Sequence record: OL310488.1
Strand: one strand, 5' to 3'
Origin: Escherichia phage EC101
DNA: 64,000 nucleotides
The notes beneath the pieces were generated by a model. That model was not told the origin of the DNA and searched no databases. It worked only from the letters and a program-made list of their open reading frames with translations. The translations under genes and the position numbers were made by a program. How positions within the stretch are numbered: the first letter of the stretch is position 1; the number at the start of each line of letters is the position of its first letter. Below are positions 43,524 through 51,471 of the stretch, piece after piece.

Positions 43524-43726
43524 ATATAATTAATAAGATTTTTGGAATTCAGTACATTAAGGTCACATATAAAGTAACAGATAAAAATCCATATACCGAT
43601 GAACATGAAGAACCACAAATTGAGTCTATTATATTAGAAAAAGGCAGTGACTGGCCAGTTGAATTTCGTCTACCAAACTATGGTCATTGGGCTGATGTTG
43701 AAATTATAAGCATTGAAAATGTCTGA
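43520..43726 (+). CDS. hypothetical protein (68 aa)
   Basis: ATGA overlap. Confidence 0.55.
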   Translation: MNIINKIFGIQYIKVTYKVTDKNPYTDEHEEPQIESIILEKGSDWPVEFRLPNYGHWADVEIISIENV

Positions 43727-44177
43727 GTTAGAGATTAGAAGTAATTTTAGGTGGCCATCATGTGCATTAAGTAATTTCGCCCATTGGCCTTTCGTTATGG
43801 ATGGTATTCAATTTGGAGGTCTTGAAGGATTCCTCCAAGGATGCAAGGTGAAAAACGTTGAACAACAACGTCGTATATTTGGGTTATCCGGGCTTGCCGC
43901 TCAACAAGCTGGAAGGTCTTATGCTAGAGCTCAGGACCGTGGGACCCTCTTCTGGCTTGGAGTTCCATTTTCAAGATACTCCCCGGCGTGGAAAGAATTA
44001 TACACAAATGCATATTTTGAAGCAGCGATTCAAAACAAGGGCTTTCGTGATGCATTACAAGCCTCGAAAGGAAAAGTTTTGAAGCACAGCATGGCTAGTG
44101 GTCTAACAAAAGATGATACAATACTAACCGAAGCTGAATTTATTGATGTGTTAAACCTATTAAGAGACTCTCTATGA
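43713..44177 (+). CDS. NADAR-domain (YbiA-like) protein, putative ADP-ribose processing enzyme
   Basis: 154-aa ORF with LSNFAHWPFVMDG...GLEGFLQGCK motif resembling the NADAR/YbiA signature; position corresponds to the T4 30.x genes. Confidence 0.6.
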   Translation: MKMSELEIRSNFRWPSCALSNFAHWPFVMDGIQFGGLEGFLQGCKVKNVEQQRRIFGLSGLAAQQAGRSYARAQDRGTLFWLGVPFSRYSPAWKELYTNAYFEAAIQNKGFRDALQASKGKVLKHSMASGLTKDDTILTEAEFIDVLNLLRDSL

Positions 44178-45010
44178 AGCCTACTATTTTAACTGATATT
44201 GATGGAGTATGTTTAAGCTGGCAATCAGGTCTTCCTTATTTTGCTCAGAAATATAATCTTCCGTTAGAACATATTTTAAAAATGATCCAGGATGAGAAAT
44301 TTATTTCTCCAGGTAAACTCTTTAATTGTGACGAAGAACTTGGCGTCAAGCTAATTGAAAAATACAATCGTTCAGATTTTATTCGTTACTTGTCTCCATA
44401 TAAAGATGCTCTGTGTGTAATTAACAAATTAAAAGAAGATTATAATTTTGTAGCTGTTACAGCATTGGGTGATTCTATTGACGCTCTGCTGAATCGTCAA
44501 TTTAATTTAAACGCTCTTTTTCCTGGTGCCTTCTCAGAAGTACTGATGTGTGGTCATGATTCTTCAAAAGAAGAGTTGTTTAAAAAGGCAAAAGAGAAAT
44601 ATAACGTGATTTGTTATATTGACGATCTCGCTCACCATTGCGATCATGCGAGTGAAATATTAAATGTTCCTGTTTATTGGATGGCTCGAGGAGAGCGTGA
44701 CAATATTCCAAAAACTGCTCAGCGAGTTTATACATGGAATGATGTAGAAAATAAGCTTTTTTCACCGAAGGAAAATAAAGAAAGTTTTGATAGTGAAAAA
44801 GCTATAAAAGATGTAATTGAAAAGATGATTAAAAACGATTCTTTTCCTTGGAACACTACCTGGAGAACTCCTGGATTTAATCCTTATAATCCATATCATC
44901 CATATCAGACGCATCCGTTTCAGACATGGAACTATATTAAACCCGGTGGCATAGAGTATTTGTATAATAGACCTACTGGTGCTAATAATATTTTCCAAGG
45001 AGCATTCTAA
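44174..45010 (+). CDS. HAD-like hydrolase family protein (278 aa)
   Basis: N-terminal motif ILTDIDGV (DxDG, HAD motif I); synteny with the T4 30.x block. Confidence 0.55.
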   Translation: MKPTILTDIDGVCLSWQSGLPYFAQKYNLPLEHILKMIQDEKFISPGKLFNCDEELGVKLIEKYNRSDFIRYLSPYKDALCVINKLKEDYNFVAVTALGDSIDALLNRQFNLNALFPGAFSEVLMCGHDSSKEELFKKAKEKYNVICYIDDLAHHCDHASEILNVPVYWMARGERDNIPKTAQRVYTWNDVENKLFSPKENKESFDSEKAIKDVIEKMIKNDSFPWNTTWRTPGFNPYNPYHPYQTHPFQTWNYIKPGGIEYLYNRPTGANNIFQGAF

Positions 45011-45279
45011 TGTTTGTTGTTCACACTATTTATGAAAATGAAGGTAATACTACACGTGATTACGGTCACGTAAATCAATTTTTTAGATGCAATCCAGAAT
45101 TCCGAGCTCAAAAAGACGAACGAATTTTTAAAAAATGCGTAGAGCAAGGTTTCATTTACGTCAAGCACTGGATGCAAGGAAATAAAGTTAGAACCACGTA
45201 CCACAGGTCTTTGACTGAGCTTAATGATGAATTGATTTATAATAGAGCTGTAAACCAAACTCTAAAGGATGAACAATGA
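45010..45279 (+). CDS. hypothetical protein (89 aa)
   Basis: TAATG overlap with the upstream gene, ATGA overlap with the downstream gene. Confidence 0.6.
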   Translation: MFVVHTIYENEGNTTRDYGHVNQFFRCNPEFRAQKDERIFKKCVEQGFIYVKHWMQGNKVRTTYHRSLTELNDELIYNRAVNQTLKDEQ

Positions 45280-46739
45280 TTCTTAAAATTCTGAACGAAA
45301 TAGCATCTATTGGTTCAACTAAGCAGAAGCAAGCAATTCTTGAAAAGAATAAAGATAATGAATTGCTTAAACGAGTATATCGTCTGACTTATTCTCGTGG
45401 GTTACAGTATTATATCAAGAAATGGCCTAAACCTGGTATTGCTACCCAGAGTTTTGGAATGCTGACTATTACTGATATGCTTGACTTCATTGAATTTACA
45501 TTAGCTACTCGAAAATTGACCGGAAATGCGGCAATTGAGGAATTAGTAGGTTATATTACTGACGGTAAAAAAGATGATGTTGAAGTTTTGCGTCGAGTGA
45601 TGATGCGAGACCTTGAATGTGGTGCTTCAGTATCTATTGCAAACAAAGTTTGGCCAGGTTTAATTCCTGAACAACCTCAAATGCTCGCAAGTTCTTATGA
45701 TGAAAAAGGCATTAATAAGAATATCAAATTTCCAGCCTTTGCCCAGTTAAAAGCTGATGGAGCTCGGTGCTTTGCCGAAGTCAGAGGTGATGAATTAGAT
45801 GACGTTCGTCTTTTATCACGAGCTGGTAATGAATATCTAGGATTAGATCTTCTTAAGGAAGAATTAATCAAAATGACCGCTGAAGCCCGCCAGATTCATC
45901 CAGAAGGCGTGTTAATTGATGGCGAATTGGTATACCATGAGCAAGTTGAAAAGGAGCCAGAAGGCCTAGATTTTCTTTTTGATGCTTATCCTGAAAACAG
46001 TAAAGCTAAAGAATTCGCCGAAGTAGCTGAATCACGTACTGCATCTAATGGCATCGCCAATAAATCTTTAAAGGGAACCATTTCTGAAAAAGAAGCACAA
46101 TGCATGAAGTTTCAGGTCTGGGATTATGTACCGTTGGTAGAAATATACGGTCTTCCTGCATTTCGTTTGAAATATGATGTACGTTTTTCTAAACTAGAAC
46201 AAATGACATCAGGCTATGATAAAGTAATTTTAATTGAAAACCAGGTAGTAAATAACCTAGACGAAGCCAAGGTAATTTATAAAAAGTATATTGACCAAGG
46301 TCTTGAAGGTATTATTCTCAAAAATATCGATGGATTATGGGAAAATGCTCGTTCAAAAAATCTCTATAAATTTAAAGAAGTAATTGATGTTGATTTAAAA
46401 ATTGTAGGAATTTATCCTCACCGTAAAGACCCTACTAAAGCAGGTGGATTTATTCTTGAGTCAGAGTGTGGAAAAATTAAAGTAAATGCTGGTTCAGGCT
46501 TAAAAGATAAAGCCGGTGTAAAATCGCATGAACTTGACCGTACTCGCATTATGGAAAACCAAAATTATTATATTGGAAAAATTCTAGAGTGCGAATGCAA
46601 CGGTTGGTTAAAATCTGATGGCCGCACTGATTACGTTAAATTATTTCTTCCGATTGCGATTCGTTTGCGTGAAGATAAAACTAAAGCTAATACATTCGAG
46701 GATGTATTTGGTGATTTTCATGAGGTAACTGGTTTATGA
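45276..46739 (+). CDS. 30: ATP-dependent DNA ligase
   Basis: 487-aa ORF; adenylation motif KADGAR (FAQLKADGARCF); matches T4 gp30. Confidence 0.95.
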   Translation: MILKILNEIASIGSTKQKQAILEKNKDNELLKRVYRLTYSRGLQYYIKKWPKPGIATQSFGMLTITDMLDFIEFTLATRKLTGNAAIEELVGYITDGKKDDVEVLRRVMMRDLECGASVSIANKVWPGLIPEQPQMLASSYDEKGINKNIKFPAFAQLKADGARCFAEVRGDELDDVRLLSRAGNEYLGLDLLKEELIKMTAEARQIHPEGVLIDGELVYHEQVEKEPEGLDFLFDAYPENSKAKEFAEVAESRTASNGIANKSLKGTISEKEAQCMKFQVWDYVPLVEIYGLPAFRLKYDVRFSKLEQMTSGYDKVILIENQVVNNLDEAKVIYKKYIDQGLEGIILKNIDGLWENARSKNLYKFKEVIDVDLKIVGIYPHRKDPTKAGGFILESECGKIKVNAGSGLKDKAGVKSHELDRTRIMENQNYYIGKILECECNGWLKSDGRTDYVKLFLPIAIRLREDKTKANTFEDVFGDFHEVTGL

Positions 46740-46924
46740 AAGCTTACTTAGAAACAATTGTCATTGCTCAAAAAGAAGGTGGAGATGTTTCTACTTCTGT
46801 ATCACAAGTCATTCTCGAATTTGTAGATGCATACGCTTATAATAAATTCACAGAAACATTTGATGCCTATGAAAAAGGTCCAAAGTTTGAAATATACCGT
46901 ACTCTCTTACCACTAGATTATTAA
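46736..46924 (+). CDS. hypothetical protein (62 aa)
   Basis: ATGA overlap with the ligase stop. Confidence 0.55.
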   Translation: MKAYLETIVIAQKEGGDVSTSVSQVILEFVDAYAYNKFTETFDAYEKGPKFEIYRTLLPLDY

Positions 46925-46948
46925 AGGCCTTCGGGCCTTTAATTTTAT
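46924..46948 (+). terminator. probable intrinsic terminator (AAAGGCC-TTCG-GGCCTTT followed by AATTTT)
   Basis: 7-bp stem with UUCG loop; weak T-run. Confidence 0.5.
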
Positions 46949-46976
46949 AAATAGAATAAACACTAGAGAGGCTATG

Positions 46977-49031
46977 ATGGAACTTATTACAGAATTATTT
47001 GACGAAGATACTACTCTTCCGATTACAAACTTAAATCCAAAGAAGAAAATACCGCAAATTTTTTCAGTTCATGTTGATGATGCAATTGAACAACCAGGCT
47101 TTCGTTTATGTACCTATACATCTGGAGGTGATACTAATCGCGATTTAAAGATGGGCGATAAAATGATGCATATTGTTCCTTTTACATTAACTGCTAAAGG
47201 TTCAATTGCTAAATTAAAAGGTCTTGGTCCAAGCCCAATTAATTATATCAATTCAGTTTTTACTGTTGCGATGCAAACAATGCGTCAGTATAAAATTGAT
47301 GCCTGTATGCTTCGTATTCTTAAGTCTAAAACCGCTGGTCAAGCTCGACAAATTCAAGTTATTGCTGATAGACTTATCCGTAGTCGTTCAGGTGGCAGAT
47401 ACGTCCTTCTTAAGGAACTCTGGGATTACGATAAAAAGTATGCATATATTCTTATACATCGCAAAAATGTATCACTAGAAGACATTCCGGGAGTTCCGGA
47501 AATTAGTACTGAGCTCTTTACTAAAGTTGAATCGAAGGTCGGTGATGTTTATATCAATAAAGATACTGGAGCTCAAGTAACTAAAAATGAGGCAATTGCA
47601 GCATCTATTGCGCAAGAAAATGATAAACGTTCTGACCAAGCTGTAATCGTTAAAGTTAAAATTTCCCGTAGAGCAATTGCGCAAAGTCAATCATTGGAAT
47701 CTTCTAGATTTGAAACGCCGATGTTTCAAAAATTTGAGGCTTCAGCAGCAGAATTAAATAAACCTGCTGACGCTCCTTTAATTTCTGACGCTAATGAATT
47801 AACTGTTATTTCTACTTCAGGATTTGCATTAGAGAATGCTCTTAGTAGTGTTACAGCTGGAATGGCATTCAGAGAAGCTTCTATAATTCCTGAAGATAAA
47901 GAATCTGATGTTAATGCAGAAATAAAAAATAAAGCTTTAGAAAGATTACGAAAAGAATCTATTACTTCAATAAAAACTTTAGAAACTATTGCTTCTATAG
48001 TTGATGATACTTTAGAAAAATATAAAGGTGCTTGGTTAGAAAGAAACATTAACAAGCATTCGCATTTAAATCAAGATGCTGCGAATGAGTTAGTACAAAA
48101 TTCTTGGAATGCAATAAAAACAAAGATTATTCGAAGAGAATTGCGTGGATATGCTCTTACCGCTGGATGGTCACTACATCCTATAGTCGAAAATAAAGAT
48201 TCATCTAAATACACACCGGCACAAAAACGCGGAATTCGTGAATACGTAAGTTCAGGATATGTAGACATAAATAACGCTCTTTTGGGATTATATAATCCAG
48301 ATGAGCGTACAAGTATTTTGACAGCATCTGATATAGAAAAAGCTATTGATAATTTAGATTCTGCCTTTAAAAATGGTGAACGATTACCAAAAGGTATTAC
48401 TTTGTATCGTTCACAACGAATGTTACCTTCAATATATGAAGCACTGGTAAAAAATCGAGTTTTTTATTTTAGAAACTTTGTGTCAACATCATTATATCCA
48501 AATATTTTTGGTACCTGGATGACTGATTCATCTGTGGGTGTTTTACCAGACGAAAAGCGTTTAAGTGTTTCTATTGATAAAACTGATGAAGGACTAGTAA
48601 ATTCTAGCGATAATTTAGTTGGAATTGGATGGGTTATTACTGGGGCTGATAAAGTCAATGTTGTTTTACCAGGTGGAAGTTTAGCACCTTCAAATGAAAT
48701 GGAAGTCATTTTGCCACGTGGATTAATGGTCAAAGTTAATAAAATAACCGATGCATCTTACAATGATGGAACAGTTAAAACTAACAACAAGCTTATTCAA
48801 GCTGAAGTTATGACCACAGAAGAACTCACCGAATCGGTAATTTATGACGGTGACCGTCTAATGGAAACCGGCGAAGTAGTTGCAATGACAGGTGATATTG
48901 AAATAGAAGACAGAGTTGACTTTGCATCATTTGTTTCATCAAACGTTAAACAGAAAGTAGAATCATCTCTTGGAATTATTGCGTCTTGTATAGATATTGC
49001 AAACATGCCTTACAAGTTCGTTCAAGGATAA
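46977..49031 (+). CDS. alt: Alt ADP-ribosyltransferase (virion-packaged; modifies host RNA polymerase alpha subunit)
   Basis: 684 aa from the ATG with GAGAGG SD; sequence matches T4 Alt as recalled; C-terminal R-S-E ADP-ribosyltransferase motifs (LYRSQ, FVSTSL, EVILPRG). Confidence 0.9.
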   Translation: MELITELFDEDTTLPITNLNPKKKIPQIFSVHVDDAIEQPGFRLCTYTSGGDTNRDLKMGDKMMHIVPFTLTAKGSIAKLKGLGPSPINYINSVFTVAMQTMRQYKIDACMLRILKSKTAGQARQIQVIADRLIRSRSGGRYVLLKELWDYDKKYAYILIHRKNVSLEDIPGVPEISTELFTKVESKVGDVYINKDTGAQVTKNEAIAASIAQENDKRSDQAVIVKVKISRRAIAQSQSLESSRFETPMFQKFEASAAELNKPADAPLISDANELTVISTSGFALENALSSVTAGMAFREASIIPEDKESDVNAEIKNKALERLRKESITSIKTLETIASIVDDTLEKYKGAWLERNINKHSHLNQDAANELVQNSWNAIKTKIIRRELRGYALTAGWSLHPIVENKDSSKYTPAQKRGIREYVSSGYVDINNALLGLYNPDERTSILTASDIEKAIDNLDSAFKNGERLPKGITLYRSQRMLPSIYEALVKNRVFYFRNFVSTSLYPNIFGTWMTDSSVGVLPDEKRLSVSIDKTDEGLVNSSDNLVGIGWVITGADKVNVVLPGGSLAPSNEMEVILPRGLMVKVNKITDASYNDGTVKTNNKLIQAEVMTTEELTESVIYDGDRLMETGEVVAMTGDIEIEDRVDFASFVSSNVKQKVESSLGIIASCIDIANMPYKFVQG

Positions 49032-49034
49032 ATC

Positions 49035-51092
49035 ATGGAACTTATTACAGAATTATTTGACGGCGCTTCGGCGCCGGTTGTTAACTTAAATCCTAAGCAT
49101 AAAATACCACAAATTTTTGCTATTCAAGCCGGCGAAGAAAGCGTGCTTCCTGGATTTAGATTTTGTACATATACCTCTGGTGGTGATACGAATAAAAACG
49201 TTAAGCCAGGCGATAAAATGATGCATATCGTAATGATAGGTGTTAATGAGAAACTATCATTAGTTAAGCTTAAAAACTTGGGTGGAAATCCAATTGGTGT
49301 CATTAATGCCGTTTTTGATACTGCTCTTCAAACAATGAAACAGTATAAAATCGACGCATGCCTATTCCGCGTACTAAAAAGTAAAACAAATGGCGCAGCT
49401 CGTCAAATGCAAGTTATTGCTGACCGTTTAGTACGTACTAAAGGAGCAGGTCGATATGTTCTTTTAAAGGAAATCTGGGACTATGATAAGAAATATGCAT
49501 ATATTATGGTTTACCGTAAAAATGCCAATTTAGAAGACATTCCAGGTGTACCTCCTATTTCAACTGAGTTATTCACAAAAGTTGAATCAAAGGTTGGTGA
49601 TGTTTATGTAGATGTTAAAACAGGTAATGCTGTTCCTAAAGCTGTTGCTGTTGCTGCTTCTATTGCTTTAGAAAATGATAAGCGCACGGACCAAGCTGTT
49701 ATTCAGAAAACTAAAATTAGTCGTCGATTAGCAGCACAAGCTCAATATTCTACTGTTGATGCTTCACTTCAGGGTGATAGCTTCGCTGCTAAGAAATATC
49801 AAGAGTTTGAATCTAAAGTTCCGGTATATAAAGCAGAAGGTCCGATGAACTCTGGCGTTATCCAGATTGGTTCAAACTTCAGCAAAGGAGCTATCGGTGG
49901 TATGAGAAGTGCTTCTCGTTTTAAATCTAACGATTATGAACTAGAAAGCTTCCGAAATCATATTGCATTGGCCCATGCACGTTTACGTGATCCATCTATC
50001 AAGTTGCAGAGCGATATAACATATCAAGGTTCTCAAGAATATTTAAAGAATAAAGAATTCTTTGATTATAAAACTGATAAAATTTTAAGCGATCTTGCTG
50101 ACATTAATATTTCTAATAGCTTTGATGTTATTAAGAAAATTATTAATGATTTAGTTAAAGGTTCTAAAACCACACCAGATGAAAAGACAGCTATTATTCA
50201 ATTTGTCATGAATGGCATTTATAAATTGATTAATGAATCTGCTGCCCAGGCATATGAATACGCAAGCACCGAAGTAGCTCCAAAAGGACTGACTCAGGCT
50301 GAATCTGATGTAATTGAAGATTATTGTGCAGATTCATATGTTGAAATGAACTCGTTCCTTTTGGGTAAACCAGATTCTACCCGTGAAGAATATATGGAAC
50401 GAGCTATTAAGCACATCGAGACGTTGGATTCTGCATTCGCTAAAGGTTCAGTTCTTCCTCCAGGAACTACGCTTTATCGTGGACAAGAAGTTACCTTTAA
50501 AACTTTGCGTCATAACATTGAAAACAAAATGTTCTATTTCAAGAACTTCGTATCCACATCGCTTAAACCAAATATATTCGGTGAGCATGGTAAAAACTAT
50601 ATGGCTCTAGATGATTCTGGCGCAGTATTTTCTGGCGAAGGAGAAGGTTCCGTTGATGCAGAAGATTTGATGCATATGGGTAGTCATTCTACATATGCTA
50701 ATGAAGATGCTGAAACTAGCGTGGGTATGGTAATTAAAGGAGCTGAGCGAATCAAAGTTATCGTTCCAGGTCATTTATCAGGATTTCCATCAGAAGCTGA
50801 AGTTATTCTACCACGTGGAATTTTACTGAAGATTAATAAAGTAAGTACTTACTTTATGAAAGAAACTGCTTATAACAAGTATCTAATCGAAGGTACAATC
50901 GTTCCTCCTTCTGAACAATTAGAAGAATCAGTATATGATGGAGACCATCTAATGGAAACTGGTGAAGTTCGTCCAATGGCTGGATTTAATCAATTCCTTG
51001 TAGAAGAATCAAAAGAAGAGGAAAATGAAGTTTCTCAAATCTTAGCTTCTTTGGTTAACATCAACGGAATGTCTAAAAAGTTCAAAATGTAG
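49035..51092 (+). CDS. Alt-like ADP-ribosyltransferase paralog (second copy, divergent central region)
   Basis: 685-aa ORF 3 nt after alt; N-terminal about 210 aa and C-terminal ART core (LYRGQ, FVSTSL, EVILPRG) are clearly homologous to Alt; the middle is diverged. Confidence 0.85.
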   Translation: MELITELFDGASAPVVNLNPKHKIPQIFAIQAGEESVLPGFRFCTYTSGGDTNKNVKPGDKMMHIVMIGVNEKLSLVKLKNLGGNPIGVINAVFDTALQTMKQYKIDACLFRVLKSKTNGAARQMQVIADRLVRTKGAGRYVLLKEIWDYDKKYAYIMVYRKNANLEDIPGVPPISTELFTKVESKVGDVYVDVKTGNAVPKAVAVAASIALENDKRTDQAVIQKTKISRRLAAQAQYSTVDASLQGDSFAAKKYQEFESKVPVYKAEGPMNSGVIQIGSNFSKGAIGGMRSASRFKSNDYELESFRNHIALAHARLRDPSIKLQSDITYQGSQEYLKNKEFFDYKTDKILSDLADINISNSFDVIKKIINDLVKGSKTTPDEKTAIIQFVMNGIYKLINESAAQAYEYASTEVAPKGLTQAESDVIEDYCADSYVEMNSFLLGKPDSTREEYMERAIKHIETLDSAFAKGSVLPPGTTLYRGQEVTFKTLRHNIENKMFYFKNFVSTSLKPNIFGEHGKNYMALDDSGAVFSGEGEGSVDAEDLMHMGSHSTYANEDAETSVGMVIKGAERIKVIVPGHLSGFPSEAEVILPRGILLKINKVSTYFMKETAYNKYLIEGTIVPPSEQLEESVYDGDHLMETGEVRPMAGFNQFLVEESKEEENEVSQILASLVNINGMSKKFKM

Positions 51093-51152: not shown

Positions 51153-51443
51153 ATGAAATCTTCTTTACGCTTTTTAGGCCAAGAGCTCGTCGTTGAAGGC
51201 GTTATTCCTGCTGATAATGCTTTTAATGAAGCAGTTTACGATGAATTTATTAAAATTTTTGGAACAGATAAAAAGTTCGGAATTTTTCCTTCTGAAAATT
51301 TTTCAAAGCCAGAACAGACTGAAAGTATTTTTCAGGGTGTAGTAACAGGTAAATTTGAGTCAGAAGCTCCGGTAAAAATTGAAGTTTATATTGAAGACAG
51401 TTTAGTTGCTTCAGTTTCTGCTTTCATTTCATTCCGTAAATAA
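51153..51443 (+). CDS. hypothetical protein (96 aa)
   Basis: GAGGAACACAAA-ATG downstream of the repeated promoter. Confidence 0.6.
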   Translation: MKSSLRFLGQELVVEGVIPADNAFNEAVYDEFIKIFGTDKKFGIFPSENFSKPEQTESIFQGVVTGKFESEAPVKIEVYIEDSLVASVSAFISFRK

Positions 51444-51449
51444 AAATAT

Positions 51450-51467
51450 GGGGACCGAAAGGTCCCC
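51450..51467. terminator. bidirectional terminator hairpin (GGGGACC-GAAA-GGTCCCC) between convergent genes
   Basis: 7-bp GC stem flanked by A-run upstream and T-rich downstream; sits between the plus-strand 51153 ORF and minus-strand gene 54. Confidence 0.7.
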
Positions 51468-51471
51468 ATTG

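Follow-up and report, generated by a model that had tools for sequence, protein, structure and literature searches.

A probable anti-DarTG1 gene, adfN (T4 gene 30.3), upstream of two Alt-type ADP-ribosyltransferase genes in Escherichia phage EC101

The window analyzed here is a stretch of 64,000 nucleotides of Escherichia phage EC101 (sequence record OL310488.1), which is a Tequatrovirus (T4-like) phage. A preliminary description of this DNA had drawn attention to an open reading frame of 154 aa on the + strand, counted from a TTG codon (43713..44177). The frame is present and is the orthologue of T4 gp30.3, with a start that likely lies slightly further downstream. An in-frame ATG at 43719, 6 nt downstream of the TTG, gives a 152-aa product identical to T4 gp30.3 at 150 of 152 positions over its full length, and the orthologue is annotated at 152 aa in the T4 record; this ATG is probably the true start. 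The gene at 43719..44177 (+) is referred to below as adfN (T4 gene 30.3), encoding a predicted ADP-ribosyl-guanine DNA glycohydrolase of the NADAR superfamily. Two substitutions, Q22H and I125M, separate the product from the T4 protein, and position 22 is a variable column in an alignment of 62 family sequences. The C-terminal end (...VLNLLRDSL) is the same as in T4 and keeps the C-terminal helix, seen at residues 138-151 of the AlphaFold (AF2) model and absent from phage RB69. Proteins with at least 99% identity to the adfN product were found in 143 phage records, one of them annotated as "NADAR domain containing protein". In most database records, the frame is still called a "hypothetical protein".

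The genes that follow lie on the same strand. Within adfN, the ORF list contains the out-of-frame 30.3' (43858..44082, +; 74 aa), which the T4 record annotates as "internal translation, in a different reading frame". Gene 30.2 (44174..45010, +) begins with an ATG that overlaps the adfN stop codon (ATGA), and its invariant residues and AF2 model predict a HAD-superfamily hydrolase (phosphatase). The invariant residues are D8xD10, T96, K132, and D150-D151, while the model (pLDDT 84) has 107 HAD-fold matches in the PDB at E<=0.001, including 5'(3')-deoxyribonucleotidases, and the gp30.2 profile matches 2jao (E=0.035). In the deposited PYPS2T sequence, gp30.2 is fused in frame to adfN, and it remains near adfN in several divergent T4-like phages. 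Further downstream are gene 30.1 (45010..45279, +; DUF3045, PF11243, E=2.9e-64), gene 30, coding for the ATP-dependent DNA ligase (45276..46739, +; PF01068, E=9e-33, and synteny with T4), and alt.1 (46736..46924, +), a 62-aa member of the Phage_blade family (PF24647, E=1.9e-29) with a T4 counterpart at the same position. This order agrees with the earlier statement that 30.x genes and DNA ligase lie between 30.3 and alt.

Between alt.1 and alt there is a terminator-like hairpin (46920..46943, +) of 10 bp with a UUCG loop, followed by a U-run, whose predicted RNA fold has a dG of -13.5 kcal/mol and a z of -3.5. The T4 late-promoter consensus TATAAATA was then located by pattern search at 46946..46953 (+), 24 nt upstream of the alt ATG. 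Over the whole window, this motif is not enriched (11 occurrences vs 9.0 +/- 2.9), and weight is given to this copy because of its position and its conservation at the equivalent place upstream of T4 alt; it is predicted to act as a late promoter. A scan for sigma-70 promoters showed no enrichment over shuffles (42 sites vs 36.5 +/- 5.8), so early promoters were not assigned. The genes from adfN to the Alt paralog had been placed in the same early transcription block: all of them are indeed co-oriented, but with the hairpin and the late-promoter motif directly upstream of alt this holds only in part.

The two tandem Alt-type frames reported previously were both recovered, and both match the ADPrib_exo_Tox domain. 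The first is alt (46977..49031, +; PF03496, E=5.6e-35), the orthologue of T4 Alt, whose product is an R-S-ExE mono-ADP-ribosyltransferase 98% identical to the T4 protein. The second (49035..51092, +) is a full-length paralog of 685 aa (PF03496, ADPrib_exo_Tox, E=4.4e-20; phrog_802, E=3.7e-256); its identity to T4 Alt is 41%, and its middle region has diverged. The R, STS, and ExE catalytic motifs of the domain are present in both copies (LYR[SG]Q, FVSTS, and E[MA]EVILPRG), reading LYRSQ, FVSTS, and EMEVILPRG in alt, and LYRGQ, FVSTS, and EAEVILPRG in the paralog, with EME and EAE, respectively, as the ExE. An ExE motif is the mark of arginine-specific ADP-ribosyltransferases. The paralog starts 4 nt past the alt stop, without a late-promoter motif of its own, and both proteins have the Tevenvirinae N-terminal region, beginning with MELITELFD. 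It is full length in at least 401 phage records, T2 among them, whereas in T4 nothing but the fragments alt.-1 and alt.-2 remains of it (T4 record note), and a T4 record matches 17% of the paralog query. The T4 record also notes Alt as a virion-delivered protein; T4 Alt is packaged in the head, enters with the injected DNA, and modifies host proteins, and the paralog may be packaged in the virion too, because its N-terminal motif is the same. After the paralog comes alt.-3 (51153..51443, +; 96 aa, phrog_1739, E=2e-44), at the same position as in T4, and the terminator scan found a hairpin on both strands (51448..51469; 9-bp stem with 6 GC pairs) between the alt block and baseplate gene 54, which is convergent with it.

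By its fold, motifs, and catalytic residues, the adfN product is a NADAR-superfamily enzyme. It matches Pfam PF08010 (Phage_30_3) with E=7.7e-70 and 233.5 bits, against a gathering cut-off of 36 bits, and covers the whole profile (1-138). The preliminary description had proposed a search against PF08719 (NADAR), and here the outcome was divided. The Pfam scan gave no match of the adfN product itself to PF08719 even at E<=10, because the separate sister model PF08010 covers it, but 24 of the 62 PF08010 family members individually match PF08719 (best E=1.5e-7), which bridges the two families. In addition, the gp30.3 family profile matches E. coli YbiA (2b3w, E=0.004) across the SNF...DG...E..Q..K motif, aligning the N-terminal motif block to YbiA residues 29-83. 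A single-sequence phmmer search against the PDB had returned only a spurious ATP-pyrophosphatase match (E=0.62), and YbiA was then found by the profile search.

The adfN product contains the motif ALSNFAHWPFVMDGIQF...EGFLQGCK, in which the NADAR signature [LF]SNF...F..DG......E.[FY].Q..K can be read. In the 62-sequence alignment, the columns A16, L17, S18, N19, F20, F25, D28, G29, E36, G37, F38, Q40, and K43 are invariant or near-invariant (at least 90%). Since the residues of the LSNF...PF..DG motif, on which the first suspicion of a NADAR-like protein was based, fall on these conserved columns, the motif is a conserved signature and not a chance match. Of the catalytic residues E36, K43, and H123, all found in the adfN product, the first and the last do not vary in the same alignment, while K43 is conserved to at least 90%. 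Their roles come from published work (PMC11543638, PMC11125620, PMC11825919): E36 and K43 are the residues mutated (E36A, K43A) in PMC11825919, and H123 is the phage-type histidine of the last strand (PMC11543638, PMC11125620). The AF2 model of the product has a pLDDT of 93.8 and a pTM of 0.89. When it was compared with the PDB by Foldseek, only 2b3w (YbiA), 8bau, and 8bat reached a probability of at least 0.98, the next match being at 0.02; these top three are the solved NADAR structures of YbiA, P. nicotianae, and G. lovleyi.

The gene, fold, activity, and anti-DarTG1 role of adfN are already known from papers of 2023 to 2025 on a protein with 99% identity. T4 gp30.3 was described as AdfN, the anti-DarT factor NADAR (Johannesman et al. 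2025; PMC11825919). As anticipated for an enzyme that processes ADP-ribose conjugates, purified T4 gp30.3 strips ADP-ribose from guanine-modified DNA, not from thymidine-modified DNA (PMC11125620), and ADP-ribosyl N-glycohydrolase activity of T4 AdfN is also reported in Fig. 4d of PMC11825919. According to the latter study, T4 AdfN is a guanine-ADP-ribosyl-DNA glycohydrolase both necessary and sufficient for DarTG1 resistance: deletion of adfN from T4 or T2 abolished plaquing on DarTG1 hosts only, and RB69, whose 30.3 allele is inactive through loss of the C-terminal helix, was rescued by plasmid-borne adfN (PMC11825919). Transposon sequencing likewise found adfN dispensable or neutral on K-12 and required with DarTG1 (bioRxiv 10.1101/2025.11.20.689424). 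Resistance was thus demonstrated for the T4 and T2 alleles (PMC11825919; 10.1101/2025.11.20.689424), and from the near identity of the sequences we infer that the EC101 allele behaves like T4 AdfN.

We therefore read EC101 43719..44177 as adfN, an anti-DarTG1 NADAR N-glycosidase, and the Alt genes as a separate module co-located with it by Tevenvirinae gene order, with a probability of about 0.9. The adfN product would be a stand-alone NADAR-fold N-glycosidase, produced early in infection, that takes ADP-ribose off phage-DNA guanine bases modified by the host DarT1 toxin; this repair would restore replication and defeat the DarTG1 defense. The protein would be an "orphan antitoxin" and a relative of DarG1. 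Downstream, the two Alt-type genes would form an offensive module apart from adfN, directed at arginine by the ExE rule. AdfN-T4 does not neutralize DarT1 in uninfected cells and rescues non-T-even phages only partly (PMC11825919, PMC11125620). These limits outside T-even infection imply that the mechanism is incomplete, with either a T-even factor or a preferred substrate context missing.

The substrates of gp30.3 could also be wider, and it may clear other ADP-ribose adducts, such as ADP-ribosylated RNA from other defenses or soluble ADP-ribose derivatives of immune signaling or nucleic-acid repair, besides or instead of DarT1-modified DNA. Phage NADARs have been argued to target mainly low-molecular-weight ADP-ribose derivatives (PMC9503650), and other DNA/RNA ADP-ribosylating defenses were proposed as targets by the authors of PMC11825919. 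The gene neighborhoods are consistent with this, as a HAD phosphatase and a DNA ligase are neighbors of adfN, and Nudix, Thg1, PRPP synthetase, and a second NADAR occur near distant gp30.3 homologues. However, the neighbors vary across the family (gp30.2 is found in 7 of 52 distant loci and the ligase in 8 of 52), and the phenotype seen with DarTG1 is both specific and complete (PMC11825919), so that we consider a wider role rather unlikely. As for a conserved downstream partner of the distant homologues, the downstream proteins at two such loci (L003 and L006) were rejected, having neither gp30.2 similarity nor a PHROG match; together with the count of 7 in 52, this limits the 30.3-30.2 pairing to T4-like phages.

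One thread left by this reading is the T-even factor without which AdfN-T4 is not fully active. It is improbable, in our estimate, that a gene of the same block supplies this factor (gp30.2, or the injected Alt transferases) or that AdfN guards against the phage's own Alt. The HAD phosphatase gp30.2 is a candidate on the grounds of its overlapping start, its fusion in PYPS2T, and its presence nearby in divergent T4-like phages, and AdfN or its targets might be modified by injected Alt-family transferases, the second candidate. Along related lines, AdfN might also protect the nucleic acid of the phage where its own diversifying Alt paralogs ADP-ribosylate guanine off target.

The preliminary description had gone further and suggested a regulated circuit. 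[quoted passage not shown] The genes adfN and alt are co-oriented, with 2.8 kb between the 30.3 stop and the alt start, and synteny is kept in all 12 close relatives, each with an Alt homologue within 10 kb of gp30.3. ScARP and Alt are transferases of one R-S-E clade. ADP-ribose placed by ScARP is removed by T4 gp30.3 (PMC11125620), a paper of 2022 had already remarked that T4-like phages carry NADARs together with ARTs and express them together (PMC9503650), and the full activity of AdfN-T4 only in T-even infection means that some T-even partner exists (PMC11825919). Neither in PMC11543638 nor in PMC11125620 was a test of NADARs on ADP-ribose linked to protein or arginine found, so the writer/eraser idea is unsupported and not formally disproved.

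Most of the evidence speaks against such a circuit, and we regard it as very improbable. In contrast to the close relatives, an Alt homologue lies within 10 kb of gp30.3 at only 3 of 52 distant family loci, and the 10 kb around gp30.3 homologues in six other lineages contained no Pfam domain of the ART family. A conserved ART-NADAR operon adjacency across the clade, of the DarT1-NADAR or YarT-YbiA type, is not seen at EC101 adfN/alt, where four genes, the hairpin, and the late-promoter motif belonging to alt stand in between. The ExE of both Alt copies indicates arginine, whereas the adducts on which NADARs are known to act are at guanine N2. Moreover, the demonstrated substrate of AdfN is DarT1-modified DNA guanine and not the protein targets of Alt (PMC11825919), RB69 retains an intact 695-aa alt next to a naturally truncated 137-aa 30.3, loss of adfN costs no fitness on K-12 with alt present (10.1101/2025.11.20.689424; PMC11825919), and Alt, which arrives with the virion, is at work before any gp30.3 has been made (T4 record note). 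The position of adfN near alt looks like inherited Tevenvirinae/T4 gene order and not like a writer/eraser pair.

That gp30.3 is a housekeeping N-glycosidase on riboflavin-pathway intermediates, as reported for YbiA-type NADARs (cited in PMC11125620 and PMC9503650), is extremely improbable even with E. coli YbiA as its best PDB match by sequence and fold, since the first rank of YbiA probably reflects extensions that the other two solved structures have and YbiA lacks, the phage-type His123 replaces the YbiA-subfamily glutamate (PMC11543638), phylogeny sets the gp30.3 clade beside DarG1-type NADARs (PMC11825919), and adfN is dispensable on K-12 (10.1101/2025.11.20.689424).

The practical value of the assignment to adfN is one of annotation, as the EC101 frame can be labeled adfN with confidence. 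Among known systems, the closest is T4 AdfN, with 99% identity, the same length, the same E36, K43, and H123, and the same place between 30.4 and 30.2; the EC101 allele differs by the two substitutions given above. The alt gene is similarly close to that of T4, and its paralog is the intact form of a duplication left in T4 as fragments and kept at full length by EC101, T2, and the other records mentioned. E. coli YbiA (2b3w, PF08719) is the best fold match (E=1.8e-4, TM 0.67) and has the SNF...DG...E..Q..K motif in common with gp30.3, but it is only 18% identical, has Glu in place of His123, and belongs to a LexA-controlled operon, unlike the context of gp30.3 (PMC11125620). DarG1 (E. coli C7; G. 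lovleyi 8bat; PMC11543638) shares with gp30.3 the NADAR/YbiA-like fold and the same chemistry, the hydrolysis of ADP-ribosyl-guanine in DNA, and the gp30.3 group is reported to be most closely related to its clade (PMC11825919). In contrast to DarG1, gp30.3 has no adjacent DarT toxin and no basic N-terminal extension, carries His where the last strand of DarG1 has Asp, and cannot serve as an antitoxin in uninfected cells (PMC11825919, PMC11125620). Finally, T4 Tk.4 (AdfM) is likewise an orphan de-ADP-ribosylase carried by a phage against a DarT toxin, differing from AdfN in its unrelated macrodomain fold, its action against DarTG2, its thymidine-linked substrate, and its locus (bioRxiv 10.1101/2025.11.20.689424).

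The product of adfN, the orthologue of T4 gene 30.3 (window 43719–44177, plus strand), belongs to the NADAR superfamily, as had been correctly proposed in the preliminary description. In Pfam, the protein matched PF08010 (Phage_30_3) with E=7.7e-70, and beyond this family nothing of note was found, including PF08719, even at E≤10. The PF08719 match that had been anticipated was therefore absent for the protein itself, owing to the way in which Pfam splits the families, and present for 24 of 62 gp30.3-family homologues (best E=1.5e-7). Similarity to NADAR proteins was also recovered with the family profile, which matched E. coli YbiA (2b3w) over the signature block (E=0.004). The AlphaFold2 model of the protein was confident (pLDDT 93.8, pTM 0.89), and when it was compared by Foldseek with 350,542 PDB chains, exactly three structures reached a probability of at least 0.98: YbiA, a Phytophthora NADAR with ADP-ribose, and a Geobacter DarG1-type NADAR. 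These are the solved NADAR folds, and all the remaining PDB matches had probabilities of 0.04 or lower. The superfamily placement follows from these four lines of evidence, namely the PF08719 matches among homologues, the YbiA profile match, the model, and the Foldseek result. The protein also carries E36 and K43, the residues mutated in AdfN (PMC11825919), which correspond to E43 and K50, two residues that contact ADP-ribose in the Phytophthora enzyme (PMC11543638).

The reading frame reported at 43713–44177 is present in the window. Since gene 30.3 is annotated with 152 aa in T4, and the product starting at the in-frame ATG at 43719, which overlaps the final codons of 30.4, is identical to T4 gp30.3 in 150 of 152 positions, the true start is most likely 43719. 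The LSNF...PF..DG motif, on which the NADAR likeness had been noticed, falls on invariant or near-invariant columns of the 62-member family alignment. The phage also retains the out-of-frame internal ORF 30.3' (74 aa, 43858–44082) that is annotated in T4.

The functional interpretation offered before is superseded by published experiments, from which the role of AdfN in removing ADP-ribose from DNA against the bacterial defence DarTG1 is already known. In work from the Suskiewicz laboratory, recombinant T4 gp30.3 was shown to remove ADP-ribose hydrolytically from guanine, though not from thymidine, in DNA (PMC11125620). Johannesman et al. mapped the ability of T-even phages to withstand DarTG1, identified gene 30.3 as its locus, and renamed this gene adfN (PMC11825919). 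In that study, deletion of adfN from T4 or T2 abolished plaquing on DarTG1 hosts; RB69, whose own 30.3 allele is truncated by a frameshift, was rescued by plasmid-borne adfN, a rescue weakened by E36A and K43A; and purified AdfN took ADP-ribose off DarT1-modified DNA. Independent confirmation comes from a transposon sequencing preprint (10.1101/2025.11.20.689424), in which adfN could be dispensed with on E. coli K-12 but was required in the presence of DarTG1. Judging by its 99% identity to the T4 protein and its intact C-terminal helix, the gene in the window is an adfN allele, and we infer that it is active.

Because AdfN-T4 requires an additional T-even factor (PMC11825919), the product of gene 30.2 (44174–45010), whose ATG overlaps the adfN stop (ATGA), is a possible candidate for this factor. 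All four HAD motifs (DxD, T, K, DD) are invariant in gp30.2, which has no Pfam family, and its fold is confidently HAD, nearest to the 5'(3')-deoxyribonucleotidases, with a disordered C-terminal tail rich in Pro, Asn, and Tyr. Gene 30.2 was found near adfN in all the close loci and in 7 of the 52 distant ones. In Yersinia phage PYPS2T (locus L002, 2220–3512), an additional C within an AAACC run, seven codons upstream of the adfN stop (around window position 44156), joins the 30.3 and 30.2 frames into one annotated CDS of 430 aa, altering the C-terminal helix of AdfN that is needed for full activity. The extra base may reflect either a real frameshift or a sequencing error in a homopolymer; the match length is shared by several PYps records.

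It had further been proposed that adfN and the tandem Alt ADP-ribosyltransferases form a writer/eraser circuit, and the expression of NADARs together with ADP-ribosyltransferases (ARTs) in T4-like phages had been pointed out earlier by Iyer et al. (PMC9503650). We surveyed 88 loci encoding gp30.3-family proteins within ±10 kb by tblastn, which detects Alt-like ARTs only. The order 30.3-30.2-30.1-ligase-alt was kept in 12 of 12 close relatives (≥55% identity, sufficient flank), while an Alt homologue lay within 10 kb in 3 of 52 distant members, all three also T4-like with the ligase alongside. In six other lineages with precomputed Pfam annotation, no ART-family domain was near the gp30.3 homologue. 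The association is thus synteny of a lineage and not family-wide linkage. RB69 offers a natural experiment, its 695-aa alt adjoining a truncated 30.3 of 137 aa, and on K-12, adfN is lost without cost with alt present (10.1101/2025.11.20.689424). Both Alt copies carry an ExE motif (EME in alt, EAE in its paralog), which is the arginine-specific signature, whereas the substrates so far established for NADARs are adducts of guanine. Since no paper was found in the literature testing a NADAR on arginine-ADP-ribose, the circuit counts as unsupported, not as disproved.

Two Alt-type ORFs of 685 aa each do lie downstream (46977–49031 and 49035–51092, plus strand), both with an ADPrib_exo_Tox domain, and are 98% and 41% identical to T4 Alt, respectively. 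The second, which starts 4 nt past the end of the first, retains the MELITELFD N-terminus and every catalytic motif, the middle third being the most diverged. At least 401 phage records, T2 included, have this copy in full length, while T4 keeps only the fragments alt.-1 and alt.-2 (locus L001, 11066–11451), described in its record as an old alt duplication. Within the Tevenvirinae, one copy is found in RB69 and in locus L009, two in the window and in T2, and three tandem ORFs of about 690 aa in locus L020 (13147–19407). This variation, visible in existing records, would fit an arms-race locus; a link between Alt and the evasion of Mokosh type I has recently been reported (10.1101/2025.11.20.689424).

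An 8.5-kb stretch around adfN and alt matches 709 phage records, nearly all Tequatrovirus or other T-even phages, and shares 99.8% identity with Escherichia phage vB-Eco-KMB26 and 99.7% with a group of Yersinia PYps phages. The gene order is that of the T4 map throughout, with the alt paralog in addition: 30.8, 30.7, 30.6, 30.5, 30.4, 30.3, 30.2, 30.1, the ligase gene 30, alt.1, alt, the alt paralog, alt.-3, and then, in convergent orientation, the baseplate genes 54 and 48. That adfN and alt share an early block is only loosely true, given that a strong 10-bp hairpin with a UUCG loop and a U-run directly follows alt.1, that a late-promoter consensus, TATAAATA, lies 3' of it and 24 nt upstream of alt (46920–46953 for both elements), and that Alt is packaged in the head and enters with the DNA (T4 record note). 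In T4, too, TATAAATA is conserved upstream of alt (L001, 13532–13539). The terminator scan did not list the alt.1/alt hairpin; it did list, on both strands, a 9-bp GC-rich hairpin (51448–51469) between alt.-3 and the convergent gene 54.

Distant loci of the gp30.3 family have other neighbours. On a jumbo-phage-like contig (L003/L004, metagenomic phage contigs of 308 and 30 kb), a gp30.3-type NADAR gene lies 9 kb from another NADAR gene of PF08719 type, and genes for Nudix, Thg1, and guanylate kinase are also present; two subtypes in one genome suggest non-redundant substrates. In loci L092 (10459–10860) and L093 (10458–10835), the gp30.3 homologue is directly followed by a PF23772 (Phage_g100) protein, with a DNA ligase nearby. 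Unlike in the T4 arrangement, Phage_g100 is a conserved neighbour in these two distant lineages.
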